IMG/VR virus record: IMGVR_UViG_2706794675_000002
DNA length: 23,647 nucleotides
Reading direction: 5' to 3' (one strand)
Origin: a virus
Lineage: Duplodnaviria; Heunggongvirae; Uroviricota; Caudoviricetes
The position numbers were made by a program, and so were the translations under genes. Below the pieces are notes generated by a model. It worked only from the letters and a program-made list of their open reading frames with translations. It searched no databases and was not told the DNA's origin. Each line of letters begins with the position of its first letter. The stretch's first letter is position 1. This document shows positions 6,892 through 23,647 of the stretch, one piece after another.

Positions 6892-6900
6892 GGGATGTTT

Positions 6901-7233: not shown

Positions 7234-7288
7234 CTTTACCCTTCATCACTAAAGGCCGCCTGTGTGGCTTTTTTTACGGGATTTTTTT

Positions 7289-8314
7289 ATGTCGATGTAC
7301 ACAACCGCCCAGCTGCTGGCGGCAAATGAGCAGAAATTTAAGTTTGATCCGCTGTTTCTGCGTCTCTTTTTCCGTGAGAGCTATCCCTTCACTACGGAGA
7401 AAGTCTATCTCTCACAAATTCCGGGACTGGTAAACATGGCGCTGTACGTTTCGCCGATTGTTTCCGGTGAGGTTATCCGTTCCCGTGGCGGCTCCACCTC
7501 TGAATTTACGCCGGGATATGTCAAACCCAAGCATGAGGTGAATCCGCAGATGACCCTGCGTCGCCTGCCGGATGAAGATCCGCAGAATCTGGCGGACCCG
7601 GCTTACCGCCGCCGTCGCATCATCATGCAGAACATGCGTGACGAAGAGCTGGCCATTGCTCAGGTCGAAGAGATGCAGGCAGTTTCTGCCGTGCTCAAGG
7701 GCAAATACACCATGACCGGTGAAGCCTTCGATCCGGTTGAGGTGGATATGGGCCGCAGTGCGGCGAACAACATCACACAGTCCGGCGTCACGGAGTGGAG
7801 CAAGCGTGACAAGTCCACGTATGACCCGACCGACGATATCGAAGCCTACGCGCTGAACGCCAGCGGTGTGGTGAATATCATCGTGTTTGACCCGAAAGGC
7901 TGGGCGCTGTTCCGTTCCTTCAAAGCCGTCAAGGAGAAGCTGGATACCCGTCGCGGCTCTCATTCCGAGCTGGAGACAGCGGTAAAAGACCTGGGCAAAG
8001 CGGTGTCCTATAAGGGAATGTATGGCGATGTGGCCATCGTCGTGTATTCCGGACAGTACGTGGAAAACGGCGTCAAAAAGAACTTCCTGCCGGACAACAC
8101 GATGGTGCTGGGGAACACTCAGGCTCGCGGTCTGCGCACCTATGGCTGCATTCAGGATGCGGACGCACAGCGCGAAGGCATTAACGCTTCTGCCCGTTAC
8201 CCGAAAAACTGGGTGACCACCGGCGATCCGGCGCGTGAGTTCACCATGATTCAGTCAGCACCGCTGATGCTGCTGGCTGATCCTGATGAGTTCGTGTCCG
8301 TTCAACTGGCGTAA
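7289..8314 (+). CDS. E: major capsid protein E (341 aa)
   Basis: Translation from MSMYTTAQLLAANEQKFKFDPLFLRLFFRESYPFTTEKVYLSQIPGLVNMALYVSPIV... is near-identical to lambda gpE. The ORF-track start at 7262 is a 9-codon upstream extension. Confidence 0.97.
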   Translation: MSMYTTAQLLAANEQKFKFDPLFLRLFFRESYPFTTEKVYLSQIPGLVNMALYVSPIVSGEVIRSRGGSTSEFTPGYVKPKHEVNPQMTLRRLPDEDPQNLADPAYRRRRIIMQNMRDEELAIAQVEEMQAVSAVLKGKYTMTGEAFDPVEVDMGRSAANNITQSGVTEWSKRDKSTYDPTDDIEAYALNASGVVNIIVFDPKGWALFRSFKAVKEKLDTRRGSHSELETAVKDLGKAVSYKGMYGDVAIVVYSGQYVENGVKKNFLPDNTMVLGNTQARGLRTYGCIQDADAQREGINASARYPKNWVTTGDPAREFTMIQSAPLMLLADPDEFVSVQLA

Positions 8315-8355
8315 TCATGGCCCTTCGGGGCCATTTTCTCTCTGTGGAGGAGTTC

Positions 8356-8754
8356 ATGACGAAAGATGAACTGATTGCCCGTCTTCAGGAGCTGGGTGAG
8401 CAATTGAACCGCGATGTCAGTTTGACGGGAACGAAAGAAGAACTGGCGCTTCGTGTGGCAGAGCTGGAAGAAGAGCTTGATGACACGGATGAAACTGCCG
8501 GTCAGGACACCCCTCTCAGCCGGGAAAATGTGCTGACCGGGCATGAAAATGAGGTGGTATCAGCGCAGCCGGATACCGTGATTCAGGATACGGCTGAACT
8601 GGTCACGGTCGTGGCACTGGTGACGCTGCATACTGATGCACTTCACGCCACGCGGGATAAACCTGTGGCATTTGTGCTGCCGGGAACGGCGTTTCGTGTC
8701 TCTGCCGGTGTGGCAGCCGAAATGACAGAGCGCGGCCTGGCCAGAATGCAATAA
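8356..8754 (+). CDS. FI: DNA-packaging / head assembly protein FI (132 aa)
   Basis: GGAGG SD before ATG 8356. Translation MTKDELIARLQELGEQLNRDVSLTGTKEELALRVAELEEELDD... matches lambda gpFI. Confidence 0.93.
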   Translation: MTKDELIARLQELGEQLNRDVSLTGTKEELALRVAELEEELDDTDETAGQDTPLSRENVLTGHENEVVSAQPDTVIQDTAELVTVVALVTLHTDALHATRDKPVAFVLPGTAFRVSAGVAAEMTERGLARMQ

Positions 8755-8765
8755 CGGGAGGCGCT

Positions 8766-9119
8766 GTGGCTGATTTCGATAACCTGTTCGATGCTGCCAT
8801 TGCCCGCGCCGATGAAACGATACGCGGGTACATGGGAACGTCAGCCACCATGACATCCGGTGAGCAGTCAGGTGCGGTGATACGTGGTGTTTTTGATGAC
8901 CCTGAAAATATCAGCTATGCCGGACAGGGCGTGCGCGTTGAAGGCTCCAGCCCGTCCCTGTTTGTCCGGACTGATGAGGTGCGGCAGCTGCGGCGTGGAG
9001 ACACGCTGACCATCGGTGAGGAAAATTTCTGGGTAGATCGGGTTTCGCCGGATGATGGCGGAAGTTGTCATCTCTGGCTTGGACGGGGCGTACCGCCTGC
9101 CGTTAACCGTCGCCGCTGA
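8766..9119 (+). CDS. FII: head-tail connector protein FII (117 aa)
   Basis: Position and translation MADFDNLFDAAIARADETIRGYMGTSATMTSGEQSGAVIRGVFDDPENISYAGQGVRVEGSSPSLFVRTDEV... match lambda gpFII. Confidence 0.94.
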   Translation: MADFDNLFDAAIARADETIRGYMGTSATMTSGEQSGAVIRGVFDDPENISYAGQGVRVEGSSPSLFVRTDEVRQLRRGDTLTIGEENFWVDRVSPDDGGSCHLWLGRGVPPAVNRRR

Positions 9120-9130
9120 AAGGGGGATGT

Positions 9131-9709
9131 ATGGCCATAAAAGGTCTTGAGCAGGCCGTTGAAAACCTCAGCCGTATCAGCAAAACGGCGGTGCCCGGTG
9201 CCGCCGCAATGGCCATTAACCGCGTTGCTTCATCCGCGATATCGCAGTCTGCGTCACAGGTTGCCCGTGAGACAAAGGTACGCCGGAAACTGGTAAAGGA
9301 AAGGGCCAGGCTGAAAAGGGCCACGGTCAAAAATCCGCAGGCCAGAATCAAAGTTAACCGGGGGGATTTGCCCGTAATCAAGCTGGGTAATGCGCGGGTT
9401 GTCCTGTCCCGCCGCAGGCGTCATAAAAAGGGGCAGCGTTCATCCCTGAAAGGTGGCGGCAGCGTGCTTGTGGTGGGTAACCGTCGTATTCCCGGCGCGT
9501 TTATTCAGCAACTGAAAAACGGCCGGTGGCATGTTATGCAGCGTGTGGCCGGGAAAAACCGTTACCCCATTGATGTGGTGAAAATCCCGATGGCGGTGCC
9601 GCTGACCACGGCGTTTAAACAGAATATTGAACGGATACGGCGTGAACGTCTTCCGAAAGAGCTGGGCTATGCGCTGCAGCATCAACTGAGAATGGTAATA
9701 AAGCGATGA
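9131..9709 (+). CDS. Z: tail completion protein Z (192 aa)
   Basis: Position and length as lambda gpZ; basic protein, translation MAIKGLEQAVENLSRISKTAVPGAAAMAINRVASSAISQSASQVARETKVRRKLV... Confidence 0.93.
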   Translation: MAIKGLEQAVENLSRISKTAVPGAAAMAINRVASSAISQSASQVARETKVRRKLVKERARLKRATVKNPQARIKVNRGDLPVIKLGNARVVLSRRRRHKKGQRSSLKGGGSVLVVGNRRIPGAFIQQLKNGRWHVMQRVAGKNRYPIDVVKIPMAVPLTTAFKQNIERIRRERLPKELGYALQHQLRMVIKR

Positions 9710-10101
9710 AACATACTGAACTCCGTGCAGCCGTACTGGATGCACTGGAGAAGCATGACACCGGGGCGACGCTTTTTGATGGTCGCCCCGCTGTTTTTGA
9801 TGAGGAAGATTTTCCGGCAATTGCCGTTTATCTCACCGGCGCTGAATACACGGGCGAAGAGCTGGACAGCGATACCTGGCAGGCGGAGCTGCATATTGAA
9901 GTTTTCCTGCCTGCTCAGGTGCCGGATTCAGAGCTGGATTCGTGGATGGAGTCCCGGATTTATCCTGTGATGAGCGATATCCCGGCACTGTCAGATTTGA
10001 TCACCAGTATGGTGGCCAGCGGCTATGACTACCGGCGCGACGATGATGCGGGCCTGTGGAGTTCAGCCGATCTGACTTATGTCATTATCTATGAAATGTG
10101 A
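9706..10101 (+). CDS. U: tail tube terminator protein U (131 aa)
   Basis: ATGA overlap with Z. Translation [72 protein letters not shown]... matches lambda gpU. Confidence 0.95.
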
Positions 10102-10108
10102 GGACGCT

Positions 10109-10849
10109 ATGCCTGTACCAAATCCTACAATGCCGGTGAAAGGTGCCGGGACCACCCTGTGGGTTTATAAGGGGAGCGGTGACCCTTATGCGAACCCGCT
10201 TTCAGACGTTGACTGGTCGCGTCTGGCAAAAGTTAAAGACCTGACGCCCGGCGAACTGACCGCTGAGTCCTATGACGACAGCTATCTCGATGATGAAGAT
10301 GCAGACTGGACTGCGACCGGGCAGGGGCAGAAATCTGCCGGAGATACCAGCTTCACGCTGGCGTGGATGCCCGGAGAGCAGGGGCAGCAGGCGCTGCTGG
10401 CGTGGTTTAATGAAGGTGATACCCGTGCCTATAAAATCCGCTTCCCGAACGGCACGGTCGATGTGTTCCGTGGCTGGGTCAGCAGTATCGGTAAGGCGGT
10501 GACGGCGAAGGAGGTGATTACCCGCACGGTGAAGGTCACCAATGTGGGACGTCCGTCGATGGCAGAAGATCGCAGCACGGTGACGGCGACGACCGGCATG
10601 ACGGTGACACCCGCCAGTGCTTCCGTAGTGAAAGGGCAGAGCACCACGCTGACCGTGGCATTCCAGCCGGATGGCGCAACCGACAAGAGCTTCCGTGCGG
10701 TGTCTGCGGATAAAACAAAAGCCACCGTGTCGGTCAGTGGTATGACCATCACCGTGAAAGGTGTTGCTGCAGGCAAGGTCAACATTCCGGTCGTATCTGG
10801 TAATGGTGAGTTTGCTGCGGTTGCAGAAATCAACGTCACCGCCAGTTAA
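10109..10849 (+). CDS. V: major tail tube protein V with C-terminal Ig-like domain (246 aa)
   Basis: Translation from [50 protein letters not shown]... matches lambda gpV. The ORF-track start at 10079 is an upstream extension overlapping U. Confidence 0.96.
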
Positions 10850-10864
10850 TCCGGAGAGTCAGCG

Positions 10865-11287
10865 ATGTTCCTGAAAACCGAATCATTTGAACATAACGGT
10901 GTGACCGTCACGCTTTCTGAACTGTCAGCCCTGCAGCGTATTGAGCATCTCGACCTGATGAAACGGCAGGCAGAACAGGCGGAGTCAGACAGCAACCGGA
11001 AGTTTACTGTGGAAGACGCCATCAGAACCGGCGCTTTTGTGGTTGCGATGTCCCTGTGGCATAACCATCCGAAGAAGACGCAGATGCCGTCCATGAATGA
11101 AGCCGTTAAACAGATTGAGCAGGAAGTGCTTACCACCTGGCCCACAGAGGCAATTTCTCATGCTGAAAACGTGGTGTACCGGCTGTCCGGTATGTATGAG
11201 TTTGTGGTGAATGATGCTCCTGAACAGGCAGAGGACGCCGGGCCTGCAGAGCCTGTTTCTGCGGGAAAGTGTTCGACGGTGAGCTGA
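10865..11287 (+). CDS. G: tail assembly chaperone G (140 aa)
   Basis: Translation MFLKTESFEHNGVTVTLSELSALQRIEHLDLMKRQAEQAESDSNRKFTVEDAIRTGAFVVAMSLWHNHPKKTQ... matches lambda gpG. Confidence 0.95.
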   Translation: MFLKTESFEHNGVTVTLSELSALQRIEHLDLMKRQAEQAESDSNRKFTVEDAIRTGAFVVAMSLWHNHPKKTQMPSMNEAVKQIEQEVLTTWPTEAISHAENVVYRLSGMYEFVVNDAPEQAEDAGPAEPVSAGKCSTVS

Positions 11288-11703
11288 GTTTTGCCCTGAA
11301 ACTGGCGCGTGAGATGGGGCGACCCGACTGGCGCGCCATGCTTGCCGGGATGTCATCCACGGAGTATGCCGACTGGCACCGCTTTTACAGTACCCATTAT
11401 TTTCATGATGTTCTGCTGGATATGCACTTTTCCGGGCTGACGTACACCGTGCTCAGCCTGTTTTTCAGCGATCCGGAGATGCATCCGCTGGATTTCAGTC
11501 TGCTGAACCGGCGCGAGGCTGACGAAGAGCCTGAAGATGATGTGCTGATGCAGAAAGCGGCAGGGCTTGCCGGAGGTGTCCGCTTTGGCCCGGACGGGAA
11601 TGAAGTTATCCCCGCTTCCCCGGATGTGGCGGACATGACGGAGGATGACGTAATGCTGATGACAGTATCAGAAGGGATCGCAGGAGGAGTCCGGTATGGC
11701 TGA
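10865..11703 (+). CDS. G-T: tail assembly chaperone G-T fusion produced by -1 programmed ribosomal frameshift at 11263..11269
   Basis: The T frame (11269..11703, ...VFDGELSFALKLAREMGRPDWRAMLAGMSSTEYADWHRF...) is -1 relative to G. The heptamer G GGA AAG sits in the G zero frame at 11263..11269, just before the G stop. Layout is identical to lambda G/G-T. Confidence 0.9.
11263..11269 (+). promoter_or_regulatory. -1 programmed frameshift slippery heptamer G GGA AAG
   Basis: Codon phasing checked against the G start at 10865: GCG GGA AAG TGT in frame 0; slipping back one base reads GGG AAA GTG TTC ... into the T frame. Confidence 0.88.
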
Positions 11704-14257
11704 ACCGGTAGGCGATCTGGTCGTTGATTTGAGTCTGGATGCGGCCAGATTTGACGAGCAGATGGCCAGAGTCAGGCGTCATTTTTCCGGTACGGAAAGT
11801 GATGCGAAAAAAACAGCGGCAGTCGTTGAACAGTCGCTGAGCCGACAGGCGCTGGCTGCACAGAAAGCGGGGATTTCCGTCGGGCAGTATAAAGCCGCCA
11901 TGCGTATGCTGCCTGCACAGTTCACCGACGTGGCCACGCAGCTTGCAGGGGGGCAGAATCCCTGGCTGATCCTGCTGCAACAGGGTGGTCAGGTTAAGGA
12001 CTCCTTCGGCGGGATGATCCCCATGTTCAGGGGGCTTGCCGGCGCGATCACCCTGCCGATGGTGGGGGCCACCTCGCTGGCGGTGGCGACCGGTGCGCTG
12101 GCGTATGCCTGGTATCAGGGCAACTCAACCCTGTCCGATTTCAACAAAACGCTGGTCCTTTCCGGTAATCAGGCGGGACTGACGGCAGATCGTATGCTGG
12201 TCCTGTCCAGAGCCGGGCAGGCGGCAGGGCTGACGTTTAACCAGACCAGCGAGTCACTCAGCGCACTGGTTAAGGCGGGGGTAAGCGGTGAGGCTCAGAT
12301 TGCGTCCATCAGCCAGAGTGTGGCGCGTTTCTCCTATGCATCCGGCGTGGAGGTGGACAAGGTCGCTGAAGCCTTCGGGAAGCTGACCACAGACCCGACG
12401 TCGGGGCTGACGGCGATGGCACGCCAGTTCCATAACGTGACGGCGGAGCAGATTGCGTATGTTGCTCAGTTGCAGCGTTCCGGCGATGAAGCCGGGGCAT
12501 TGCAGGCGGCGAACGAGGCCGCAACGAAAGGGTTTGATGACCAGACCCGCCGCCTGAAAGAGAACATGGGCACGCTGGAGACCTGGGCAGACAGGACTGC
12601 ACGTGCATTCAAATCCATGTGGGATGCGGTGCTGGATATTGGTCGTCCTGATACCGCGCAGGAGATGCTGATTAAGGCAGAGGCTGCGTTTAAGAAAGCA
12701 GACGACATCTGGAATCTGCGCAAGGATGATTATTTCGTTAACGATGAAGCACGGGCGCGTTACTGGGATGATCGTGAAAAAAAACGCCTGGAGCGGGATG
12801 CAGCCCAAAAGAGGGTAGATCAACAGCGTCAACAGGACAAAAATGCGCAGCAGCAGAGCGATACCGAAGCGTCACGGCTGAAATATACCGAAGAGGCGCA
12901 GAAGGCTTACGAACGGCTGCAGACGCCGCTGGAGAAATATACCGCCCGTCAGGAAGAACTGAACAAGGCACTGAAAGACGGAAAAATCCTGCAGGCAGAT
13001 TACAACACGCTGATGGCGGCGGCGAAAAAGGATTATGAAGCGACGCTGAAAAAGCCGAAACAGTCCGGCGTGAAGGTGTATGCGGGCGATCGTCAGGAAG
13101 ACAGTGCTCATGCGGCCCTGCTGACGCTTCAGGCAGAACTCCGGACGCTGGAGAAGCATGCCGGAGCGAATGAGAAAATCAGCCAGCAGCGCCGGGATTT
13201 GTGGAAGGCAGAAAGTCAGTTCGCGGTACTGGAGGAGGCGGCACAACGTCGCCAGCTGTCCGCACAGGAGAAATCCCTGCTGGCGCATAAAGACGAGACG
13301 CTGGAGTACAAACGCCAGCTGGCTGCACTTGGTGACAAGGTTACGTATCAGGAGCACCTGAATGCGCTGGCGCAGCAGGCGGATAAATTCGCACAGCAGC
13401 AACGGGCAAAACGGGCAGCCATTGATGCGAAAAACCGGGGGCTGACTGACCGGCAGGCAGCGCGGGAAGCCACGGAACAGCGCCTGAAGGAACAGTATGG
13501 CGATAATCCTCTGGCGCTGAATAACGTCATGTCAGAGCAGAAAAAGACCTGGGCGGCTGAAGACCAGCTTCGCGGGAGCTGGATGGCAGGCCTGAAGTCC
13601 GGCTGGAGTGAGTGGGAAGAGAGCGCCACGGACAGTATGTCACAGGTTAAAAGTGCAGCCACGCAGACCTTTGATGGTATTGCACAGAATATGGCGGCGA
13701 TGCTGACCGGCAGTGAACAGAACTGGCGCAGCTTCACCCGCTCCGTGCTGTCCATGATGACAGAAATTCTGCTTAAGCAGGCAATGGTGGGGATTGTCGG
13801 GAGTATCGGCAGCGCCATTGGCGGGGCTGTTGGTGGCGGCGCATCCGCGTCAGGTGGTACAGCCATTCAGGCCGCTGCGGTGAAATTCCATTTTGCAACC
13901 GGGGGATTTACGGGAACCGGCGGCAAATATGAGCCAGCGGGGATTGTTCACCGTGGTGAATTTGTCTTCACGAAGGAGGCAACCAGCCGGATTGGCGTGG
14001 GGAATCTCTACCGGCTGATGCGCGGCTATGCGGAAGGTGGTTATGTGGGCGGTGCCGGAAGTCCGGCGCAGATGCGGCGGGCTGAAGGCATTAATTTTAA
14101 TCAGAACAATCACGTGGTGATTCAGAACGACGGTACGAATGGTCTGCCAGGTCCACAGATGATGAAGGCCGTGTATGACATGGCCCGCAAGGGTGCCCGT
14201 GATGAAATTCAGACACAGATGCGTGATGGTGGCCTGTTCTCCGGAGGTGGACGATGA
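11696..14257 (+). CDS. H: tail tape measure protein H (853 aa)
   Basis: 853-aa ORF starting directly after T (same length as lambda gpH), with long Ala/Gln/Glu-rich helical regions and a Gly-rich C-terminal part. ATGA overlap with M at the 3' end. Confidence 0.96.
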   Translation: MAEPVGDLVVDLSLDAARFDEQMARVRRHFSGTESDAKKTAAVVEQSLSRQALAAQKAGISVGQYKAAMRMLPAQFTDVATQLAGGQNPWLILLQQGGQVKDSFGGMIPMFRGLAGAITLPMVGATSLAVATGALAYAWYQGNSTLSDFNKTLVLSGNQAGLTADRMLVLSRAGQAAGLTFNQTSESLSALVKAGVSGEAQIASISQSVARFSYASGVEVDKVAEAFGKLTTDPTSGLTAMARQFHNVTAEQIAYVAQLQRSGDEAGALQAANEAATKGFDDQTRRLKENMGTLETWADRTARAFKSMWDAVLDIGRPDTAQEMLIKAEAAFKKADDIWNLRKDDYFVNDEARARYWDDREKKRLERDAAQKRVDQQRQQDKNAQQQSDTEASRLKYTEEAQKAYERLQTPLEKYTARQEELNKALKDGKILQADYNTLMAAAKKDYEATLKKPKQSGVKVYAGDRQEDSAHAALLTLQAELRTLEKHAGANEKISQQRRDLWKAESQFAVLEEAAQRRQLSAQEKSLLAHKDETLEYKRQLAALGDKVTYQEHLNALAQQADKFAQQQRAKRAAIDAKNRGLTDRQAAREATEQRLKEQYGDNPLALNNVMSEQKKTWAAEDQLRGSWMAGLKSGWSEWEESATDSMSQVKSAATQTFDGIAQNMAAMLTGSEQNWRSFTRSVLSMMTEILLKQAMVGIVGSIGSAIGGAVGGGASASGGTAIQAAAVKFHFATGGFTGTGGKYEPAGIVHRGEFVFTKEATSRIGVGNLYRLMRGYAEGGYVGGAGSPAQMRRAEGINFNQNNHVVIQNDGTNGLPGPQMMKAVYDMARKGARDEIQTQMRDGGLFSGGGR

Positions 14258-14583
14258 AAACCTTCCGCTGGAAAGTGAAACCCGGTATGGATGTGGCTTC
14301 GGCCCCTTCTGTAAGAAAGGTGCGCTTTGGTGATGGCTATTCCCAGCGAGCGCCTGCCGGGCTGAATGCCAACCTGAAAACGTACAGCGTGACGCTTTCT
14401 GTCCCCCGTGAGGAGGCCATGGTACTGGAGTCGTTTCTGGAAGAGCACGGGGGCTGGAAAGCCTTTCTGTGGACGCCGCCTTATGAGTGGCGGCAGATAA
14501 AGGTGACCTGCGCAAAATGGTCGTCGCGGGTCAGTATGCTGCGTGTTGAGTTCAGCGCAGAGTTTGAACAGGTGGTGAACTGA
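14254..14583 (+). CDS. M: minor tail protein M (109 aa)
   Basis: Translation MKTFRWKVKPGMDVASAPSVRKVRFGDGYSQRAPAGLNANLKTYSVTLSVPREEAMVLESFLEEHGGWKAFLWTPPYEWRQIKV... matches lambda gpM; same position and length. Confidence 0.95.
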   Translation: MKTFRWKVKPGMDVASAPSVRKVRFGDGYSQRAPAGLNANLKTYSVTLSVPREEAMVLESFLEEHGGWKAFLWTPPYEWRQIKVTCAKWSSRVSMLRVEFSAEFEQVVN

Positions 14584-15281
14584 TGCAGGATATCCGGCAG
14601 GAAACACTGAATGAATGCACCCGTGCGGAGCAGTCGGCCAGCGTGGTGCTCTGGGAAATCGATCTGACAGAGGTCGGTGGAGAACGTTATTTTTTCTGTA
14701 ATGAGCAGAACGAAAAAGGTGAGCCGGTCACCTGGCAGGGGCGACAGTATCAGCCGTATCCCATTCAGGGGAGTGGTTTTGAACTGAATGGCAAAGGCAC
14801 CAGTACGCGCCCCACGCTGATGGTTTCTAACCTGTACGGTATGGTCACCGGGATGGCGGAAGATCTACAGAGTCTGGTCGGCGGAACGGTGGTCCGGCGT
14901 AAGGTTTACGCCCGTTTTCTGGATGCGGTGAACTTCGTCAACGGAAACAGTGACGCCGATCCGGAGCAGGAGGTGATCAGCCGCTGGCGCATTGAGCAGT
15001 GCAGCGAACTGAGCGCGGTGAGTGCCTCTTTTGTACTGTCCACGCCGACGGAAACAGATGGCGCTGTTTTTCCGGGACGTATCATGCTGGCCAACACCTG
15101 CACCTGGACCTATCGCGGCGATGAGTGCGGTTATCACGGTCCGGCGGTCGCGGATGAATATGACCAGCCAACGTCCGACATCACGAAGGATAAATGCAGC
15201 AAATGCCTGAGTGGCTGTAAGTTTCGCAATAACGTCGGCAACTTTGGCGGCTTCCTTTCCATTAACAAACTTTCGCAGTAA
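14583..15281 (+). CDS. L: minor tail protein L (232 aa)
   Basis: TGATG overlap with M. Translation MQDIRQETLNECTRAEQSASVVLWEIDLTEVGGERYFFCNEQNEKGEPVTWQGRQYQPYPIQGSGFELNGKG... matches lambda gpL. Confidence 0.95.
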   Translation: MQDIRQETLNECTRAEQSASVVLWEIDLTEVGGERYFFCNEQNEKGEPVTWQGRQYQPYPIQGSGFELNGKGTSTRPTLMVSNLYGMVTGMAEDLQSLVGGTVVRRKVYARFLDAVNFVNGNSDADPEQEVISRWRIEQCSELSAVSASFVLSTPTETDGAVFPGRIMLANTCTWTYRGDECGYHGPAVADEYDQPTSDITKDKCSKCLSGCKFRNNVGNFGGFLSINKLSQ

Positions 15282-15286
15282 ATCCC

Positions 15287-15451
15287 ATGACAGAGACAGA
15301 ATCAGCGATTCTGGCGCACGCCCGGCGATGTGCTCCAGCGGAGTCGTGCGGCTTCGTGGTAAGAACGCCGGAGGGGGAAAGATATTTCCCCTGCGTGAAT
15401 ATCTCCGGTGAGCCGGAGGCGTATTTCCGTATGTCGCCGGAAGACTGGCTG
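15287..15451 (+). CDS. K: tail tip assembly protein K, N-terminal 55 codons only, truncated by N-run
   Basis: MTETESAILAHARRCAPAESCGFVVRTPEGERYFPCVNISGEPEAYFRMSPEDWL then N. Starts 6 nt after L. The classical lambda K annotation begins at the internal Met (MSPEDWL), 48 codons downstream. Confidence 0.85.
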
Positions 15452-15701
15452 NNNNNNNNNNNNNNNNNNNNNNNNNNNNNNNNNNNNNNNNNNNNNNNNN
15501 NNNNNNNNNNNNNNNNNNNNNNNNNNNNNNNNNNNNNNNNNNNNNNNNNNNNNNNNNNNNNNNNNNNNNNNNNNNNNNNNNNNNNNNNNNNNNNNNNNNN
15601 NNNNNNNNNNNNNNNNNNNNNNNNNNNNNNNNNNNNNNNNNNNNNNNNNNNNNNNNNNNNNNNNNNNNNNNNNNNNNNNNNNNNNNNNNNNNNNNNNNNN
15701 N
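15452..15701. other. run of 250 N; junction between K N-terminus and an unrelated tape-measure C-terminus
   Basis: Literal n characters. The flanking coding sequences cannot be contiguous parts of one gene. Confidence 1.
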
Positions 15702-15917
15702 GCTGATGGTAAGCTGGGGGGTGTGGCGGATACTGGTGGTTCAGGCATGGTGATGTTTGCCCCGCAGTACAACATTGAGATCAATAACGATGGCACGAAC
15801 GGGCAGATAGGTCCGGCTGCCCTGAAGGTGGTTTATGACCTCGGGAAAAAAGCGGCCGCGGACTTTATGCAACAGCAGGCCCGTGATGGTGGCCGGTTAA
15901 GTGGAGCATACCGGTAA
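15702..15917 (+). CDS. C-terminal ~71 codons of a second, divergent tape measure protein (H-like), 5' part missing in the gap
   Basis: ...GVADTGGSGMVMFAPQYNIEINNDGTNGQIGPAALKVVYDLGKKAAADFMQQQARDGGRLSGAYR parallels the C-terminus of H at 11696..14257 (...HVVIQNDGTNGLPGPQMMKAVYDMARKGARDEIQTQMRDGGLFSGGGR) at roughly half identity. Followed by an M-like gene with a TAATG overlap. Confidence 0.75.
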   Translation, partial: ADGKLGGVADTGGSGMVMFAPQYNIEINNDGTNGQIGPAALKVVYDLGKKAAADFMQQQARDGGRLSGAYR

Positions 15918-16246
15918 TGGAGACGTTTCACTGGAAAGTGCGCCCGGATATGAATGTGGTATCAGAGCCGAAAGTGGTGACAGTGAAGCTGGGCGATGGT
16001 TATGAACAGCGTCGTGCGGCGGGACTGAATAACCAGTTGTCGACTTACAGCGTGAAGATACGTGTTCGTAAAGGTGAACACCCATTTTTAAAAGCCTTTC
16101 TGGAACGGCACGGTGGCGTCCGCGCATTTCAGTGGACGCCACCTTATGACTGGAAGCCGATCAGGGTGGTTTGTCGTAAATGGTCGGCAAGCGTGGGGGC
16201 GTTGTGGGTAACCATAACGGCAGATTTTGAACAGGTCGTGGCATAG
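15917..16246 (+). CDS. minor tail protein M, second divergent copy (109 aa)
   Basis: Same length as M; clearly homologous but substantially diverged by eye (METFHWKVRPDMNVVSEPKVVTVKLGDGYEQRRAAGLNNQLSTYSV...FQWTPPYDWKPIRVVCRKWSASVGALWVTITADFEQVVA). Confidence 0.9.
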   Translation: METFHWKVRPDMNVVSEPKVVTVKLGDGYEQRRAAGLNNQLSTYSVKIRVRKGEHPFLKAFLERHGGVRAFQWTPPYDWKPIRVVCRKWSASVGALWVTITADFEQVVA

Positions 16247-16255
16247 GAGGCTCTG

Positions 16256-16954
16256 ATGCAGGATATTCCACAGGAAACACATCATGAGACGACACGCCTC
16301 ACTCAGTCAGCCCAGGTGGTGCTCTGGGAAATCGATCTGACAGAGGTCGGTGGTGAACGTTATTTTTTCTGTAATGAGCAGAACGAAAAAGGTGAGCCGG
16401 TTACCTGGCAGGGGCGGCAGTATCAGGCATACCCCATTCAGGGGACGGGATTTGAACTGAACGGCAAGGGCAGTGCTGCCCGTCCGACACTGACGGTTTC
16501 TAACCTGCACGGAATGGTCACCGGGATGGCGGAAGACCTGCAGAGTCTGGTCGGCGGAACGGTGGTCAGGCGTAAGGTTTACGCCCGTTTTCTGGATGCG
16601 GTGAACTTCGTCAACGGAAACAGCGACGCCGATCCGGAACAGGAGGTGATCAGCCGCTGGCGCATCGAGCAGTGCAGCGAACTGAGCGCGGTCAGTGCCT
16701 CTTTTGTGCTGGCCACACCAACGGAGACGGATGGCGCGGTTTTCCCGGGGCGTATCATGCTGGCGAATACCTGTATGTGGACTTACCGTTCTGATGAGTG
16801 TGGTTACACGGGCAGGGCAGTGGCTGACGAGTTCGACAAACCAACGACGGATATCCGGAAGGACAAATGCAGCAAGTGTATGCGCGGGTGTGAGTTGCGC
16901 AACAATACCGGTAATTTCGGCGGTTTCCTTTCCATCAATAAACTTTCTCAGTAA
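16256..16954 (+). CDS. minor tail protein L, second copy (232 aa, highly similar to the first)
   Basis: GGAGG SD before ATG. The protein is highly similar to L at 14583..15281, with long stretches of identical DNA (e.g. gtggtgctctgggaaatcgatctgacagaggtcggtgg). Confidence 0.93.
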   Translation: MQDIPQETHHETTRLTQSAQVVLWEIDLTEVGGERYFFCNEQNEKGEPVTWQGRQYQAYPIQGTGFELNGKGSAARPTLTVSNLHGMVTGMAEDLQSLVGGTVVRRKVYARFLDAVNFVNGNSDADPEQEVISRWRIEQCSELSAVSASFVLATPTETDGAVFPGRIMLANTCMWTYRSDECGYTGRAVADEFDKPTTDIRKDKCSKCMRGCELRNNTGNFGGFLSINKLSQ

Positions 16955-16958
16955 ATCC

Positions 16959-17702
16959 ATGACACAGACAGAATCAGCGATTCTGGCGCACGCCCGGCGA
17001 TGTGCGCCAGCGGAGTCGTGTGGCTTCGTGGTAAGAACGCCGGAGGGAGACAGGTATCTTCCCAGCGAGAATATCTCCGGTGAGCCGGAGGAACGGTTCC
17101 GGATGGCTCCGGAGGACTGGCTGCGGGCACAAATGCAGGGTGAGATTGTGGCGCTGGTCCACAGTCATCCCGGTGGTCTGCCCTGGCTGAGTGAGGCTGA
17201 CCGGCGGCTGCAGGTGCAGAGTGATTTGCCGTGGTGGCTGGTCTGCCGGGGGGCGATTCACAAGTTCCGCTGTGTGCCACATCTTACCGGGCGGCGCTTT
17301 GAGCACGGGGTGACGGACTGTTACACGCTGTTCCGGGATGCTTACCATCTGGCGGGGATTGAGATGCCGGATTTTCATCGTGAGGATGACTGGTGGCGTC
17401 ACGGTCAGAATCTCTATCTGGATAATCTGGAGGCCACAGGGCTGTATCAGGTGCCGTTGTCAGCGGCGCAGCCGGGCGATGTGCTGCTGTGCTGTTTTGG
17501 TTCATCGGTGCCGAATCATGCCGCCATTTACTGTGGTGACGGCGAGCTGCTGCACCATATTCCTGAACAACTGAGCAAACGAGAGAGGTATACCGACAAA
17601 TGGCAGCGACGCACACACTCCCTCTGGCGTCACCGGGCATGGCACGCATCTGCCTTTACGGGGATTTGCAACGATTTGGCCGCCGCATCGACCTTCGTGT
17701 GA
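16959..17702 (+). CDS. tail tip assembly protein K, full length (247 aa) with JAB/MPN-like motif and NlpC/P60-like C-terminal part
   Basis: ATG at 16959, 5 nt after the second L copy. MTQTESAILAHARRCAPAESCGF... contains HSHPGGLPWLSEAD (HxH...S..D metal-binding motif typical of JAB/MPN). The C-terminal half carries the Cys/His residues seen in lambda gpK. The ORF-track start at 16695 is an upstream extension inside L. Confidence 0.88.
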   Translation: MTQTESAILAHARRCAPAESCGFVVRTPEGDRYLPSENISGEPEERFRMAPEDWLRAQMQGEIVALVHSHPGGLPWLSEADRRLQVQSDLPWWLVCRGAIHKFRCVPHLTGRRFEHGVTDCYTLFRDAYHLAGIEMPDFHREDDWWRHGQNLYLDNLEATGLYQVPLSAAQPGDVLLCCFGSSVPNHAAIYCGDGELLHHIPEQLSKRERYTDKWQRRTHSLWRHRAWHASAFTGICNDLAAASTFV

Positions 17703-17847
17703 AAACGGGTGCCGAAGCCATCCGGGCGATGGCCACACAGCTCCCTGCGTTTCGTCAGAAGCTGAGCGACGGCTGGTATCAGGTGCGTATTGCCGGGCAG
17801 GATGTTAGCACGTCCGGATTAACGGCACAGTTACATGAGGCTCTGCC
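17600..17847 (+). CDS. tail tip assembly protein I, N-terminal 83 codons, truncated by N-run
   Basis: MAATHTLPLASPGMARICLYGDLQRFGRRIDLRVKTGAEAIRAMATQLPAFRQKLSDGWYQVRIAGQDVSTSGLTAQLHEAL then N. Overlaps the 3' end of K by ~100 bp as in lambda. Confidence 0.85.
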
Positions 17848-18112
17848 NNNNNNNNNNNNNNNNNNNNNNNNNNNNNNNNNNNNNNNNNNNNNNNNNNNNN
17901 NNNNNNNNNNNNNNNNNNNNNNNNNNNNNNNNNNNNNNNNNNNNNNNNNNNNNNNNNNNNNNNNNNNNNNNNNNNNNNNNNNNNNNNNNNNNNNNNNNNN
18001 NNNNNNNNNNNNNNNNNNNNNNNNNNNNNNNNNNNNNNNNNNNNNNNNNNNNNNNNNNNNNNNNNNNNNNNNNNNNNNNNNNNNNNNNNNNNNNNNNNNN
18101 NNNNNNNNNNNN
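17848..18112. other. run of 265 N; junction between I N-terminus and a third K 3' fragment
   Basis: Literal n characters. Confidence 1.
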
Positions 18113-18113
18113 T

Positions 18114-18416
18114 AACGGTCAGAATCTCTATCTTGACAATATGGAGGTGACGGGTTTTTACCGTGTCGCACTGACAGAGGCACAGCCGGGCGATGTGCTG
18201 CTGTGCTGTTTTGGTTCATCGGTGCCGAATCATGCCGCCATTTACTGCGGTGACGGCGGGCTGCTGCACCATATTCCTGAACAACTGAGCAAACGAGAGA
18301 GGTACACCGACAAATGGCAGCGACGCACACACTCCCTCTGGCGTCACCGGGCATGGCGCGCATCTGCCTTTACGGGGATTTACAACGATTTGGTCGCCGC
18401 ATCGACCTTCGTGTGA
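18114..18416 (+). CDS. C-terminal ~100 codons of a further K copy, 5' part missing in the gap
   Basis: NGQNLYLDNMEVTGFYRVALTEAQPGDVLLCCFGSSVPNHAAIYCGDGGLLHHIPEQLSKRERYTDKWQRRTHSLWRHRAWRASAFTGIYNDLVAASTFV is near-identical to the C-terminus of K at 16959..17702. Confidence 0.85.
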   Translation, partial: NGQNLYLDNMEVTGFYRVALTEAQPGDVLLCCFGSSVPNHAAIYCGDGGLLHHIPEQLSKRERYTDKWQRRTHSLWRHRAWRASAFTGIYNDLVAASTFV

Positions 18417-18955
18417 AAACGGGGGCTGAAGCCATCCGGGCACTGGCCACACAGCTCCCGGCGTTTCGTCAGAAACTGAGTGACGGCTGGTATCAGGTGC
18501 GCATTGCCGGGCGTGATGCAGGTGAAACCGAATTGTCTGCCCGTCTTAATGAGCCGCTGGCAAATGGTGCAGTGATCCACATAGTACCGCGTCTGGTGGG
18601 AGCTAAAAGTGGCGGTGTGTTTCAGGCGGTGCTGGGGGCGGCTGTTATGGCGGTTGCTATATGGATGCCGGGGGTAGGAATTATGGCGAGTAATCTGCTG
18701 TTTTCTCTCGGTGCCAGTATGACGCTTGGCGGTGTTGCACAGATGCTGGCACCGAAAGCCAGAACTCCCCGTACACAGACAACGGATAACGGTAAGCAGA
18801 ACACGTATTTCTCGTCACTGGATAACATGGTTGCCCAGGGCAATGTTCTGCCCGTTCTGTACGGTGAAATGCGCGTGGGGTCACGTGTGGTTTCTCAGGA
18901 GATCAGCACGGCAGACGAAGGGGATGGTGGTCAGGTTGTGGTGATTGGTCGCTGA
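18314..18955 (+). CDS. I: tail tip assembly protein I, full length (213 aa)
   Basis: Same N-terminus as the truncated I copy; hydrophobic Gly/Ala-rich middle and the C-terminal ...NVLPVLYGEMRVGSRVVSQEISTADEGDGGQVVVIGR as in lambda gpI. Confidence 0.93.
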   Translation: MAATHTLPLASPGMARICLYGDLQRFGRRIDLRVKTGAEAIRALATQLPAFRQKLSDGWYQVRIAGRDAGETELSARLNEPLANGAVIHIVPRLVGAKSGGVFQAVLGAAVMAVAIWMPGVGIMASNLLFSLGASMTLGGVAQMLAPKARTPRTQTTDNGKQNTYFSSLDNMVAQGNVLPVLYGEMRVGSRVVSQEISTADEGDGGQVVVIGR

Positions 18956-18973
18956 TGCAAAATGTTTTATGTG

Positions 18974-18994
18974 AAACCGCCTGCGGGCGGTTTT
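18974..18994 (+). terminator. GC-rich hairpin followed by T-run between I and J (terminator or attenuator-like)
   Basis: aaaccgcc-tgcg-ggcggttt: 8-bp stem, 4-nt loop, then T. Located in the 60-bp I-J spacer. Confidence 0.4.
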
Positions 18995-19015
18995 GTCGTT
19001 TATGGAGCGTGAGGA

Positions 19016-22000
19016 ATGGGTAAAGGCAGCAGTAAGGGGCATACCCCGCGCGAAGCGAAGGACAACCTGAAATCCACGCAGTTGCTGAGTGTGATTGATG
19101 CCATCAGCGAAGGGCCGGTTGACGGTCCGGTGGATGGATTAAAAAGCGTGCTGCTGAACGGTACGCCGGTCCTGGACAGCGAGGGGAAGACAAACCTTTN
19201 NNNNNNNNNNNNNNNNNNNNNNNNNNNNNNNNNNNNNNNNNNNNNNNNNNNNNNNNNNNNNNNNNNNNNNNNNNNNNNNNNNNNNNNNNNNNNNNNNNNN
19301 NNNNNNNNNNNNNNNNNNNNNNNNNNNNNNNNNNNNNNNNNNNNNNNNNNNNNNNNNNNNNNNNNNNNNNNNNNNNNNNNNNNNNNNNNNNNNNNNNNNN
19401 NNNNNNNNNNNNNNNNNNNNNNNNNNNNNNNNNNNNNNNNNNNNNNNNNNNNNNNNNNNNNNNNNNNNNNNNGGAAAAAGACATCACCATTAAGGGCAAA
19501 ACCACTTCGCAGTATCTGGCCTCGGTGGTGGTGGGTAACCTGCCGCCGCGCCCGTTTAATATCCGGATGCGCAGGATGACACCGGACAGCACCACAGACC
19601 AGCTGCAGAACAAAACGCTCTGGTCGTCGTACACCGAAATCATCGATGTGAAACAGTGCTACCCGAACACGGCGCTGGTCGGCGTGCAGGTGGATTCAGA
19701 GCAGTTCGGTAACCAGCAGGTGAGTCGCAATTATCATCTTCGCGGGCGCATTCTGCAGGTGCCGTCGAACTATAACCCGCAGACGCGGCAATACAGCGGT
19801 ATCTGGGACGGAACGCTTAAGCCAGCATACAGCAACAACATGGCCTGGTGTCTGTGGGACATGCTCACTCATCCGCGCTACGGCATGGGGAAACGTCTTG
19901 GTGCGGCAGATGTGGACAAATGGGCGCTGTATGTCATCGGCCAGTACTGCGACCAGTCAGTGACGGACGGATTTGGCGGCACGGAGCCGCGCATCACCTG
20001 TAACTCTTACCTGACCACACAGCGTAAGGCGTGGGATGTTCTCAGTGATTTCTGCTCGGCGATGCGCTGTATGCCGGTATGGAACGGACAGATGCTGACG
20101 TTCGTGCAGGACCGACCGTCGGATAAGGTGTGGACCTATAACCGCAGTAATGTGGTGATGCCGGACGATGGCGCGCCGTTCCGCTACAGCTTCAGCGCCC
20201 TGAAGGACCGCCATAATGCCGTTGAGGTGAACTGGATTGACCCAGATAACGGCTGGGAGACGGCGACAGAGCTTGTGGAGGATACGCAGGCCATTGCCCG
20301 TTACGGTCGTAATGTCACGAAGATGGATGCCTTTGGCTGTACCAGCCGGGGGCAGGCACACCGAGCCGGGCTGTGGCTGATTAAAACGGAACTGCTGGAA
20401 ACGCAGACCGTGGACTTCAGCGTGGNNNNNNNNNNNNNNNNNNNNNNNNNNNNNNNNNNNNNNNNNNNNNNNNNNNNNNNNNNNNNNNNNNNNNNNNNNN
20501 NNNNNNNNNNNNNNNNNNNNNNNNNNNNNNNNNNNNNNNNNNNNNNNNNNNNNNNNNNNNNNNNNNNNNNNNNNNNNNNNNNNNNNNNNNNNNNNNNNNN
20601 NNNNNNNNNNNNNNNNNNNNNNNNNNNNNNNNNNNNNNNNNNNNNNNNNNNNNNNNNNNNNNNNNNNNNNNNNNNNNNNNNNNNNNNNNNNNNNNNNNNA
20701 CGGCGTTGCAGAATACAGCGTGTGGGGGCTGAAGCTGCCGACGCTGCGCCAGCGTCTGTTCCGCTGCGTGAGTATCCGTGAGAACGACGACGGCACGTAT
20801 GCCATCACCGCCGTGCAGCATGTGCCGGAAAAAGAGGCCATCGTGGATAACGGGGCACACTTTGACGGTGACCGGCGCGGCACGGTGAATGGTGTCACGC
20901 CGCCAGCGGTGCAGCATCTGACCGCCGAAGTCACCGCAGACAGCGGGGAATATCAGGTGCTGGCGCGATGGGACACGCCGAAGGTGGTGAAGGGTGTGAG
21001 CTTCCTGCTTCGCCTGACCGTGGCAGCGGACGACGGCAGTGAGCGGCTGGTCAGCACAGCCAGGACGACGGAAACCACATACCGCTTCAGGCAGCTGGCG
21101 CTGGGGAATTACAGTCTGACAGTCCGGGCGGTAAATGCCCGGGGGCAGCAGGGCGATCCGGCGTCGGTATCGTTCCGGATTGCGGCACCGGCAGCGCCTG
21201 TCACTATTGAACTGATACCGGGGTATTTTCAGATAACGGCGGTCCCGAAACTGGCTGTATATGACCCGACGGTGCAGTTTGAGTTCTGGTTTTCGGAAAA
21301 GCGGATTGCGGATATCAGGCAGGTTGAAACCAGCGCCCGCTATCTTGGCACGGCGCTGTACTGGATAGCCGCCAGTATCAATATCAGGCCGGGCCATGAT
21401 TATTATTTTTACGTTCGCAGTGTGAACACCGTTGGCAAATCGGCATTTGTGGAGGCCATCGGTCGGGCGAGCGATGATGCAGAAGGTTATCTGAATTTTT
21501 ATAAAGGGTTGATCAATAAAACGCATCTCGGCAAGGAGTTGTGGACGCAGATTGATAACGGTCAGCTTGCGCCGGACCTGACTGAAATCAGGACGTCCAT
21601 TACGAATGTCAGCAATGAAATCACGCAAACCGTCAATAAAAAACTGGAAAATCAGAGTGCTGCAATCCAGCAGATACAGAAAGTTCAGGTTGATACAAAT
21701 AATAACCTGAACAGCATGTGGGCTGTGAAGCTGCAACAGATGAAGGACGGACGCCTTTATATTGCGGGTATCGGTGCCGGTATTGAGAATACGCCAGCAG
21801 GAATGCAGAGTCAGGTGCTGCTGGCGGCAGACAGGATTGCGATGATTAATCCTGCGAATGGCAACACAAAGCCGATGTTTGTTGGTCAGGGCGATCAGAT
21901 ATTCATGAACGACGTGTTCCTGAAATGCCTGACGGCTCCGACCATTACCAGCGGCGGTAATCCTCCGGCATTTTCCCTGACACCTGGCGGACGGCTGACG

Positions 22001-22528
22001 GCGAAAAATGCCGATATCAGCGGTAACGTGAACGCGAACTCCGGGACGCTCAACAACGTCACGATTAATAAGAACTGTCGGGTTCTGGGAAAATTGTCCG
22101 CGAACCAGATTGAAGGCGATCTCGTTAAAACAGTGGGCAAACCTTTCCCACGGGACTCCCGGGCACCGGAGAGGTGGCCATCAGGGACCATTACCGTCAG
22201 GGTTTATGACGATCAGCCGTTTGATCGGCAAATTGTTATTCCCGCGGTGGCGTTTCGCGGTGCTAAACATGAGCGGAAGAATAACAATATTTATTCGTCA
22301 TGCCGCCTGATAGTGAAGAAAAACGGTGCTGAAATTTATAACCGAACGACCCTGGATAATACGCTGATATATACGGGTGTTATTGATATGCCTGCCGGTC
22401 ACGGTCACATGACGCTGGAGTTTTCTGTATCGGCATGGCTGGTAAATGGCTGGTATCCCACAGCAAGTATCAGCGATTTGCTGGTTGTGGTGATGAAGAA
22501 AGCCACTGCAGGCATCACGATTAGCTGA
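19016..22528 (+). CDS. J: tail tip fibre / host specificity protein J, interrupted by two N-runs (19200..19472 and 20426..20699)
   Basis: Three ORF-track pieces (19016.., 19525..20781, 20720..22528) in different frames align in order with lambda gpJ: [34 protein letters not shown]...; ...[19 protein letters not shown]...[18 protein letters not shown]...ETQTVDFSV; ...[54 protein letters not shown]... The C-terminal ~350 aa are divergent from lambda J. Confidence 0.93.
19200..19472. other. run of 273 N inside J
   Basis: Literal n characters; the J reading frame is not preserved across it. Confidence 1.
20426..20699. other. run of 274 N inside J
   Basis: Literal n characters; the J reading frame is not preserved across it. 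Confidence 1.
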
Positions 22529-22546
22529 ATTTTATAACCCAGATAC

Positions 22547-22571
22547 GGGCACCAGAAATGGTGCCTTTTTT
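22547..22571 (+). terminator. rho-independent terminator after J
   Basis: gggcacc-agaaat-ggtgcc followed by tttttt, immediately 3' of the J stop. Confidence 0.7.
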
Positions 22572-22595
22572 ATTGCAGAAAAGCGAGAGGTAATT

Positions 22596-23195: not shown

Positions 23196-23222
23196 TTAGC
23201 CAGGTAACACAGTGTTATGACT

Positions 23223-23247
23223 GCCCGCTGGTTCAGGCGGGCTTTTT
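23223..23247 (+). terminator. rho-independent terminator after lom
   Basis: gcccgc-tggttcag-gcgggc followed by ttttt. Confidence 0.7.
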
Positions 23248-23258
23248 GTGGGGTGAAT

Positions 23259-23585: not shown

Positions 23586-23647
23586 TATAAGACGGTAATT
23601 CGCCATTTGGATTGTCCGCTCCACCCAACATGTTGTTTCCTTAAGGT

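Follow-up and report, generated by a model that had tools for sequence, protein, structure and literature searches.

Apparent triplication of a tail-tip module in a prophage scaffold is very probably the product of serial assembly of two similar prophage regions

The tail-tip module of phage lambda (H, M, L, K, I and J) has the same gene order, gene sizes and Pfam families as the tail genes of the window, by which we mean the whole 23,647-nucleotide stretch of DNA analysed here. The nearest isolated phages, at about 92-93% match, are mEp332, mEp460 and their relatives, and the gene order is colinear with that of annotated E. coli prophages and phages. Recombination and inversion between paralogous lambdoid prophages are well known in E. 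coli O157:H7, and a real duplication of related genes is present in the finished S. sonnei genome CP019689.1, where a 9,417-bp unit of the prophage remnant here called R occurs in tandem; each readable junction carries an IS copy, and the repeats share 99.96% identity. Genome rearrangements in Shigella are the stated subject of another paper (PMC8072062). With regard to draft genomes, the published Sanger pipeline, which combines Velvet (k set to 66-90% of the read length) with SSPACE and GapFiller, makes N gaps at its joins; its authors state that greedy assumptions can yield false joins, and the species that it left in the most pieces was S. sonnei, at 405 contigs on average (Page et al. 2016, PMC5320598).

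The window is the entire public draft record CWTP01000056.1 (GCA_001249755.1), whose source organism is almost certainly Shigella sonnei and whose annotated genes terminate at the edges of N-runs. Five N-runs were found in it (250, 250, 265, 273 and 274 nt), and the stretches that they separate were named S1 (1-3139), S2 (3390-15451), S3 (15702-17847), S4 (18113-19199), S5 (19473-20425) and S6 (20700-23647). Finished S. sonnei chromosomes contain two separate loci to which the blocks correspond; each block matches one of the two at 99.9-100% identity, save the hybrid S3, which matches both. Locus A is a complete lambdoid prophage with head genes, H-M-L-K-I, a 1165-aa J and a fibre gene, and locus R is an IS-truncated remnant comprising an IS, the C-terminus of H, M'-L'-K-I'', a 1159-aa J and Lom. 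In finished genomes the two differ in neighbours and gene content, and each occurs once. The draft record, together with the presence of each K allele on about 1000 S. sonnei contigs, suggests that A and R coexist in one cell, the two loci having been located in different finished genomes. The features of the window that bear on the tail genes, with the terminase gap, are as follows.

3140-3389: N-run of 250 nt that interrupts the gene for the large terminase subunit, a scaffold gap of the usual kind apart from the tail finding
11696-14257, plus strand: H, tape measure gene of prophage A (Pfam TMP_2 and Tape_meas_lam_C), within 4583-15451 (10,869 bp), an exact match in CP000038.1 locus A
14254-14583, plus strand: M, A-type (Pfam Phage_min_tail), exact in CP000038.1 locus A
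14583-15281, plus strand: L, A-type (Pfam Phage_tail_L)
15287-15451, plus strand: first 55 codons of K (Pfam Prok-JAB), at the end of the A-left contig
15452-15701: N-run of 250 nt that conceals the apparently false junction of the K N-terminus with the H' C-terminus
15702-15917, plus strand: C-terminal 71 codons of H', R-type, exact in CP023645.1 locus R from position 8103
15917-16246, plus strand: M', R-type (Pfam Phage_min_tail), exact in CP023645.1 locus R
16256-16954, plus strand: L', R-type (Pfam Phage_tail_L), exact in CP023645.1 locus R
16959-17702, plus strand: K', full length (247 aa), hybrid (Pfam Prok-JAB and NLPC_P60)
17199-17278: 80-nt tract identical in A and R, within which S3 switches from R to A (SNP table and exact matches)
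17600-17847, plus strand: first 82 codons of I', A-type, exact in CP000038.1 locus A
17848-18112: N-run of 265 nt that conceals the apparently false junction of the I' N-terminus with the K'' C-terminus
18113-18416, plus strand: last 100 codons of K'' (residues 148-247), R-type (Pfam NLPC_P60), 99.9% identical to CP023645.1 locus R from position 9800
18314-18955, plus strand: I'', full length, R-type (Pfam Lambda_tail_I)
19016-22528, plus strand: J'', R-type, in three pieces that match CP023645.1 locus R, with the frame shifted by N-runs
19200-19472 and 20426-20699: N-runs of 273 and 274 nt that interrupt J''

Open reading frames and Pfam matches give the order H-M-L-K(55 codons) / 250 N / H'(71 codons)-M'-L'-K'-I'(82 codons) / 265 N / K''(100 codons)-I'', exactly as in the preliminary description of this DNA. 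That description counted the module three times, which is too many: M and L occur only twice, K is present as one full copy and two fragments, and I as a complete copy and a fragment. The window thus contains two modules, the second of which interrupts the first. The H' fragment gave no match of its own in the Pfam search; it corresponds to the 3' part of a reading frame with a tape measure annotation in E. coli genomes, and in finished genomes it is the 3' end of the IS-truncated tape measure gene, within a 127-aa ORF downstream of IS copies. The exact L protein is present in prophage A of finished genomes, followed there by full K, I and the 1165-aa J, and the exact I'' protein is present in remnant R of finished genomes. 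Rightward of the second tail N-run, 18113-19199 matches CP023645.1 locus R with one mismatch (at 19196), and 19473-20425 and 20700-23647 are exact in the same locus. The copies of L and K had been called near-identical, which overstates their likeness: L and L' share 84.4% of nucleotides (87.9% of amino acids) and the pieces of K 88.5-91.4% of nucleotides, with M and M' at 62% nt (55% aa) and the H tails at 67% nt. Exact tracts do exist, of 40-65 nt between module copies within the window and of up to 80 nt in K between the two loci.

Both non-canonical junctions are unread, lying within N-runs, and the positions of these runs bear out the earlier remark that each novel junction is hidden in one. 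The sequences beside the first of them cannot be parts of one gene, as had also been noted, with codon 55 of K on one side and the C-terminus of H' on the other, 250 nt apart. The K fragments that flank the insert are complementary and do not overlap, covering residues 1-55 and 148-247.

We consider, with a probability of about 90%, that the triple tail-tip module is an assembly product in which two similar prophage regions were strung in series, and not a real arrangement, the false joins having been deduced by comparison with other genomes. With equal assurance, the tandem order H-M-L-K / H'-M'-L'-K'-I' / K''-I'' would not exist in the cell, because S3 appears to have been wrongly placed serially between S2 and S4. 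The scaffolding of contigs from similar prophages that had been put forward as the likeliest explanation is supported by the assignment of each block to A or R at 99.9-100%, and the same reading draws on the complementarity of the K fragments, on N-runs of inexact length and on a layout that other assemblies do not reproduce.

In the proposed course of events, a short-read draft scaffold would have put in series contigs that derive from a pair of paralogous lambdoid regions on the same chromosome. S2 is the left part of A, up to K nt 165, and S4-S6 correspond to R rightward from K nt 441. S3 joins the left part of R to the right part of A, of which it carries the initial 649 nt (K nt 241 to I nt 248), and it thereby includes the middle segment of K that neither S2 nor S4 contains. 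Read pairs, or reads aligned to shared K tracts, may have tied S3 to both neighbours, and a greedy scaffolder would then have inserted it in series, with N-runs of estimated length. The lengths of the runs are indeed estimates, because the J reading frame changes across the J'' N-runs, which measure 273 and 274 nt versus true gaps of 262 and 252 bp in CP023645.1 locus R; the terminase N-run is 250 nt long versus 241 bp for the equivalent stretch in E. coli Z226-1. The longest exact tracts shared by A and R fall in the K gap (80 and 59 nt) and in the first J gap (86 and 74 nt). Identity between A and R is nevertheless insufficient on its own to account for every gap, because the shared tracts of the third J gap are merely 56 and 47 nt long and tracts of 79 and 86 nt lie inside S6 without a break there. 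The A-left contig stops at K nt 165 although A-specific SNPs extend to K nt 240, and CP000038.1 locus A runs on from this point into an intact K.

Other assemblies place the same blocks differently. S3 (2146 bp) is 100% identical inside gap-free 11.3-kb contigs from at least six other assemblies, in which I' extends exactly as A for more than 7.8 kb, through a full I, the 1165-aa J and the fibre region. The suggestion that 15702-17847 belongs elsewhere is thus supported by contigs that carry it in a normal context, with the refinement that it is an R/A hybrid rather than a piece of a single prophage, 15702-17278 being exact in R and 17199-17847 exact in A. The flanks of this segment, S2 and S4, are linked directly by 275-276 nt, with no N, in three gap-free contigs from other assemblies, a K spacing of approximately one N-run. 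In two sister scaffolds (ENA accessions of similar style), the K-I-J region is chained six to seven times with 1-21 N, at junctions unlike those of the window, with A-right sequence repeated and with blocks that are mosaics of A and R. S3 is a single colinear match in 1,817 complete E. coli genomes, and each finished E. coli prophage, A locus and R locus inspected has one tail module. Among phage records, 269 match, at 277 places; all of these carry the module once, and none covers at least 80% of the 5.2-kb query; all 12 of the phage records listed have a single place, and the three query pieces map there on one span of about 2.8 kb. The triple layout was absent from the finished S. sonnei loci, E. 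coli loci, phages and other drafts examined.

Within the reading of a scaffold assembled in series, the hybrid gene K may reflect either a phase switch by the assembler or a real exchange between the two prophages. K' carries R alleles up to K nt 240 and A alleles from K nt 321, and the reciprocal hybrids, K_D and K_E, both switch between these positions. The exact K' protein is found on 61 contigs (longest 36,167 bp) and the other hybrid on 32 (longest 37,091 bp), and neither hybrid allele was seen in any finished genome; the parental alleles K_A and K_R are found on about 1000 contigs each, including chromosomes of 4.9-5.0 Mb.

We lean slightly towards retention of the parental arrangement (A-left with A-right, R-left with R-right), with S3 as a chimeric contig and the join of S2 to S4 as false. 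That adjacency may be another false join because finished genomes, in every one seen, pair A-left with A-right and R-left with R-right. A Velvet k of 66-90% of a 75-100-nt read is at most about 90, so that an 80-nt identical tract can be ambiguous, and the sister scaffolds do contain chimeric blocks. Less easily accommodated are the occurrence of the same hybrids in gap-free contigs elsewhere, presumably produced by other assemblers, and the spacing of S2 and S4 in the scaffold, which fits the reciprocal hybrid exactly.

In a second scenario, which we hold to be rather doubtful, homologous recombination within the 80-nt tract of K truly swapped the right halves of A and R in this strain, as a chromosomal inversion between the two prophages, for instance, would do. 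S2-(275 nt)-S4-S5-S6 would then be a true A-left plus R-right locus, and S3 the correct reciprocal contig, misinserted into the K gap. Both reciprocal hybrids are present as gap-free contigs in many independent assemblies, R-left plus A-right as 11.3-kb contigs (one exact contig is recorded in 17 samples) and A-left plus R-right as 21.06-kb contigs among the matches listed, with 21 further similar places; contig sizes are consistent across assemblies, suggesting a clonal group, the switch falls in the identical 80-nt interval in both hybrids, and single reads of 100-250 nt can phase such a tract. Such recurrence is however not proof, since any phase switch in an identical tract gives the same hybrid sequence. 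The restriction of the hybrids to contigs of at most 37,091 bp, set against the abundance of the parental alleles in contigs and chromosomes, also speaks against a swap, as does a sister scaffold that holds both parental K_A and hybrid K_D, so that A-right sequence is present twice in it; the mosaic blocks of the other sister scaffold are obvious chimeras. Tentatively, an S. sonnei sublineage, possibly including the source strain, could have undergone a reciprocal A/R exchange in the 80-bp K tract, most simply by inversion. Prophage A would then have acquired the J/Lom/fibre end from the remnant, and the other locus would carry the reciprocal product. Even so, the module in triplicate would remain an assembly artefact, while the hybrid K' (16959-17702) would mark a genuine site of recombination, which would extend modestly the knowledge of prophage-mediated rearrangement in Shigella.

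A genuine tandem partial duplication or insertion in the cell, of the form H-M-L-K(truncated)-H'(truncated)-M'-L'-K'-I'(truncated)-K''(truncated)-I'', is very improbable, and this alternative of the preliminary description found no support. Both junctions are unread, the IS-mediated tandem duplication of the R unit in CP019689.1 is real, and in S. flexneri the copy number of IS-flanked prophage segments, with a Lom gene among their contents, is variable (PMC8092226). Against these precedents, the layout would require two illegitimate junctions, each exactly in an assembly gap and each truncating two essential tail genes, and would have to leave exactly complementary K fragments. It is not a recent duplication, because the supposed copies are only 62-91% identical; they are alleles of two different resident loci, none of the finished genomes, phages or other drafts examined shows the layout, and the junctions differ in sister scaffolds, whereas the CP019689.1 case has readable IS junctions and 99.96% identical copies.

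Least probable of all is that the N-runs mask real sequence of exact length, as the terminase N-run by chance preserving the reading frame might suggest, or that the extra block came from a second strain in a mixed culture: exact-length masking is refuted by the J N-runs, whose lengths depart from those of the true gaps by 11 and 22 nt and disrupt the reading frame, K aa 55 cannot reach the H' C-terminus within 250 nt, and a second strain is unnecessary because A and R are normal residents of single S. sonnei chromosomes.

Draft scaffolds of genomes rich in prophages and IS, such as that of Shigella sonnei, can show paralogous prophage pieces serially, and tail genes then appear in the automated annotation as truncated and "duplicated", as on CWTP01000056.1. 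Counts of prophages, tail-gene copies or pseudogenes taken from such records would mislead.

Compared with the lambda tail-tip module, nothing functional differs in the window, and the sole oddity is the concatenation of pieces of two paralogous copies. The duplication in CP019689.1 involves the same genes (the H' C-terminus, M', L', K, I'', J'' and Lom), but shows no truncation of genes in mid-ORF and contains no A-type sequence. Homologous recombination or inversion between lambdoid prophages has in common with the present case the switch of the hybrid K in an 80-nt tract of identity and the presence of both reciprocal products in drafts, although the K hybrids were seen in no finished genome and thus possibly reflect a phase switch by the assembler. 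The likeness to the pathology of Velvet, SSPACE and GapFiller assemblies lies in the false joins, which sister scaffolds with accessions of the same style also show; the N-runs of this record are 250-274 nt long versus 1-21 in those scaffolds, and this record may have come from a different pipeline.

The order of tail-tip genes given in the preliminary description, H-M-L-K(N-term), N, H'(C-term)-M'-L'-K'-I'(N-term), N, K''(C-term)-I'', was borne out by open reading frames (ORFs) and Pfam matches. The module was also said to appear three times; here the layout stood and the triple count fell, M and L each being present twice.

Blocks and N-runs of the window
1-3139: block S1
3140-3389: N-run, 250 nt, in the terminase large-subunit gene, reading frame kept by chance
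3390-15451: block S2
15452-15701: N-run, 250 nt, K N-terminal fragment to H' fragment
15702-17847: block S3
17848-18112: N-run, 265 nt, I' fragment to K'' fragment
18113-19199: block S4
19200-19472: N-run, 273 nt, in J
19473-20425: block S5
20426-20699: N-run, 274 nt, in J
20700-23647: block S6

Tail-tip genes and gene fragments, with the basis of each call
11696-14257: H (ORF, Pfam)
14254-14583: M (ORF, Pfam)
14583-15281: L (ORF, Pfam)
15287-15451: K, first 55 codons (ORF, Pfam)
15702-15917: tape measure gene (H'), last 71 codons (ORF)
15917-16246: M' (ORF, Pfam)
16256-16954: L' (ORF, Pfam)
16959-17702: K', full, 247 aa (ORF, Pfam)
17600-17847: I', first 82 codons (ORF)
18113-18416: K'', last 100 codons (ORF, Pfam)
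18314-18955: I'', full (ORF, Pfam)

Three J pieces lie downstream of I''. The K N-terminal fragment covers residues 1-55 and K'' covers residues 148-247, so the two share no part of the protein. The copies of L and K, previously called near-identical, proved to be related only, with nucleotide identities of 84% (L/L') and 88-91% (K pieces), alongside 62% for M/M' and 89% for the I pieces; the longest exact runs shared between copies in the window are 40-65 nt.

An exact-protein look-up with K' returned the record CWTP01000056.1 (GCA_001249755.1; 23,647 bp), which matches the window in genes and N-runs, the protein itself being labelled Shigella sonnei in the source databases. Gene calls on this record break off at the N boundaries, which shows that the N-runs are part of the public record. 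A finished E. coli prophage (L001) carries the counterparts of blocks S1, S2, S4, S5 and S6 in colinear order, spaced by 241, 275, 262 and 252 bp. The two J gaps measure 262 and 252 bp in finished S. sonnei, versus N-runs of 273 and 274, so that the latter exceed the true sequence by 11 and 22 nt, and the annotation breaks J into three frame-shifted pieces; these features mark the N-runs as scaffold gaps of estimated size. Masks of exact length were ruled out by the same frame change and length differences, and masking is also contradicted by the gene calls stopping at the Ns.

Exact-protein look-ups with L and I'' in finished chromosomes identified two source loci, in different genomes. Locus A is a complete lambdoid prophage with head genes and H-M-L-K-I, followed by J (1165 aa), a fibre protein (1027 aa) and a tail-fibre assembly protein; an IS1 comes next in those finished genomes that show the following gene, as in L013. 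Locus R is a remnant consisting of phage early genes and Q, IS copies, a tape measure gene reduced to its final 127 codons, M'-L'-K-I'', a 1159-aa J, Lom and further IS copies. Block origins were assigned by direct string comparison with locus A in CP000038.1 (L022), which we take to be S. sonnei Ss046, and locus R in CP023645.1 (L024). The source of the left part of S3 and of S4-S6 in finished genomes is thus a degraded prophage, in which (L024 1-8320) the early genes and the Q antiterminator give way to IS copies that replace the lysis and head genes through most of the tape measure gene.

Window positions 4583-15451 are exact in A (L022 1-10869; 10,869 bp identical to CP000038.1), whereas 19473-20425 and 20700-23647 are exact in R, as is 18113-19199 save for one base, 4 nt short of its end. 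This C/T difference at 19196 is the only departure of S4-S6 from finished R sequence and probably reflects an error at the end of contig S4. S3 matches R exactly over 15702-17278 (L024 8103-9679) and A over 17199-17847 (L022 10945-11593), and is thus a hybrid, R-left up to K nt 240 (window 17198) and A-right from K nt 321 (window 17279), with the switch inside an 80-nt tract (17199-17278) identical in both loci. The scaffold therefore runs A-left, N, R-left plus the start of A-right, N, R-right. With the E. coli reference L001 alone the window had the appearance of one normal prophage with one foreign insert, a picture dropped because S2 and S4-S6 match two different S. sonnei loci exactly.

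Other assemblies bear directly on the serial order. S3 occurs at 100% identity within gap-free 11.3-kb contigs in at least six of them (one such contig being recorded exactly in 17 samples), where I' continues into more than 7.8 kb of exact A sequence, J and fibre genes included, with no K fragment after I'. In three gap-free 21-kb contigs from other assemblies (L032, L034, L035), 275-276 nt separate the end of S2 from the start of S4, approximately the length of one N-run, and exactly supply the missing K residues 56-147. Two sister scaffolds, CXFN01000043.1 (L002) and CXFK01000048.1 (L033), whose accessions are similar in style to that of the window record, chain the K-I-J region 6-7 times with spacers of 1-21 N; their junctions differ from those of the window, A-right sequence is repeated, and several overlapping K-I-J blocks are 94-99% mosaics of A and R. 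Such chains make the problem look systematic for that assembly set, beyond a single record. On these sequence comparisons, we put at about 0.9 the probability that the tandem triple layout is a scaffolding artefact and not real biology, under either reading of the hybrid K discussed below. The interpretation preferred beforehand, that contigs of similar prophages had been scaffolded together, gains support from the block matches to loci A and R.

The Sanger pipeline is a candidate for the one behind CWTP01000056.1. It runs Velvet (k = 66-90% of read length), followed by SSPACE and GapFiller, tools that its authors describe as greedy, with false joins possible; joins yield N gaps, contigs below the fragment size are discarded, and no species in the paper's table is more fragmented than S. 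sonnei (PMC5320598). Short-read graphs would be unable to phase A/R tracts when k is no larger than the tract length. S3 carries the middle segment of K that truly separates any K N-terminus from any K C-terminus; S2 and S4 would thus each be expected to have links to it, and serial placement between the two is what a greedy scaffolder would produce.

In K, the longest exact A/R tracts, of 80 and 59 nt, both fall within the gap, and tracts of 86 and 74 nt lie in the first J gap, whereas those in the second J gap are only 56 and 47 nt and S6 contains unbroken tracts of 79 and 86 nt. The proposal that every gap lies at the longest A/R tract is thus true for the K gap and the first J gap and false for the second J gap, and identity between A and R, as judged from these tracts, explains the gaps in part only. 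S2 stops at K nt 165 (window 15451), with A-specific differences extending to K nt 240, and S3 (from 15702) begins 121 nt further in than its counterpart contigs from other assemblies do. These ends find no explanation in the A-R comparison, which suggests that further paralogous tail-gene copies in the genome contribute to the contig breaks.

The hybrid K of S3 (K_D, 16959-17702) was found in 61 contigs (longest 36,167 bp) and its reciprocal (K_E) in 32 (longest 37,091 bp), versus at least 1000 contigs for the parental K_A (longest 5.03 Mb) and 999 for K_R (longest 4.94 Mb), both including finished chromosomes. Neither hybrid lies on a long contig, all 61 and 32 being about 37 kb or less. We lean slightly towards the parental arrangement for this strain, with S3 chimeric and the S2-S4 join false: a switch anywhere in the identical tract gives the same hybrid sequence, and the rarity and short contigs of the hybrids are consistent with occasional phase switches during assembly. 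Against this, each hybrid turns up repeatedly, in many independent assemblies, on gap-free contigs whose length stays constant, at 11.3 kb for one and 21.06 kb for the other; GCA_003891555.1 and GCA_014033175.1 are examples of assemblies with such contigs. Further, an 80-nt tract is within phasing range of ordinary 100-250-nt reads, so that a real reciprocal A/R recombination in a sublineage, for example by inversion, is possible, if less likely given that finished genomes pair A-left with A-right and R-left with R-right.

Genuine tandem structure in the cell is very improbable, as it would require two illegitimate junctions, each falling exactly in an unread gap and cutting two tail genes, yet leaving precisely complementary K fragments. 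Across 1,817 finished E. coli genomes S3 aligns as one colinear piece, and one module was present in each finished E. coli prophage inspected. The module lies at one place in each of the 12 phage records listed, and in the 269 matching phage records, with 277 places in total, coverage of the 5.2-kb query always stays below 80%.

The genes in the window are ordinary lambda-type tail-tip genes, and mEp332 and mEp460 are among the closest phage isolates, with matches of about 92-93%. A real-looking tandem duplication of the whole R unit (H' C-terminus, M', L', K, I'', J'', Lom, IS) is present in the finished S. sonnei chromosome CP019689.1 (4621455-4651513; L025/L026), where the repeated sequence amounts to 10,685 bp (99.96% identity, period 9,417 bp) and 1.27-kb IS copies lie at its boundaries. 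In S. flexneri, a PacBio study reports variable copy number of an IS1-flanked 8-kb prophage segment with a Lom gene (PMC8092226). Both cases have readable IS junctions and near-identical copies, whereas the window has neither, and the one point in it worth pursuing is whether the hybrid K is a true recombination joint.
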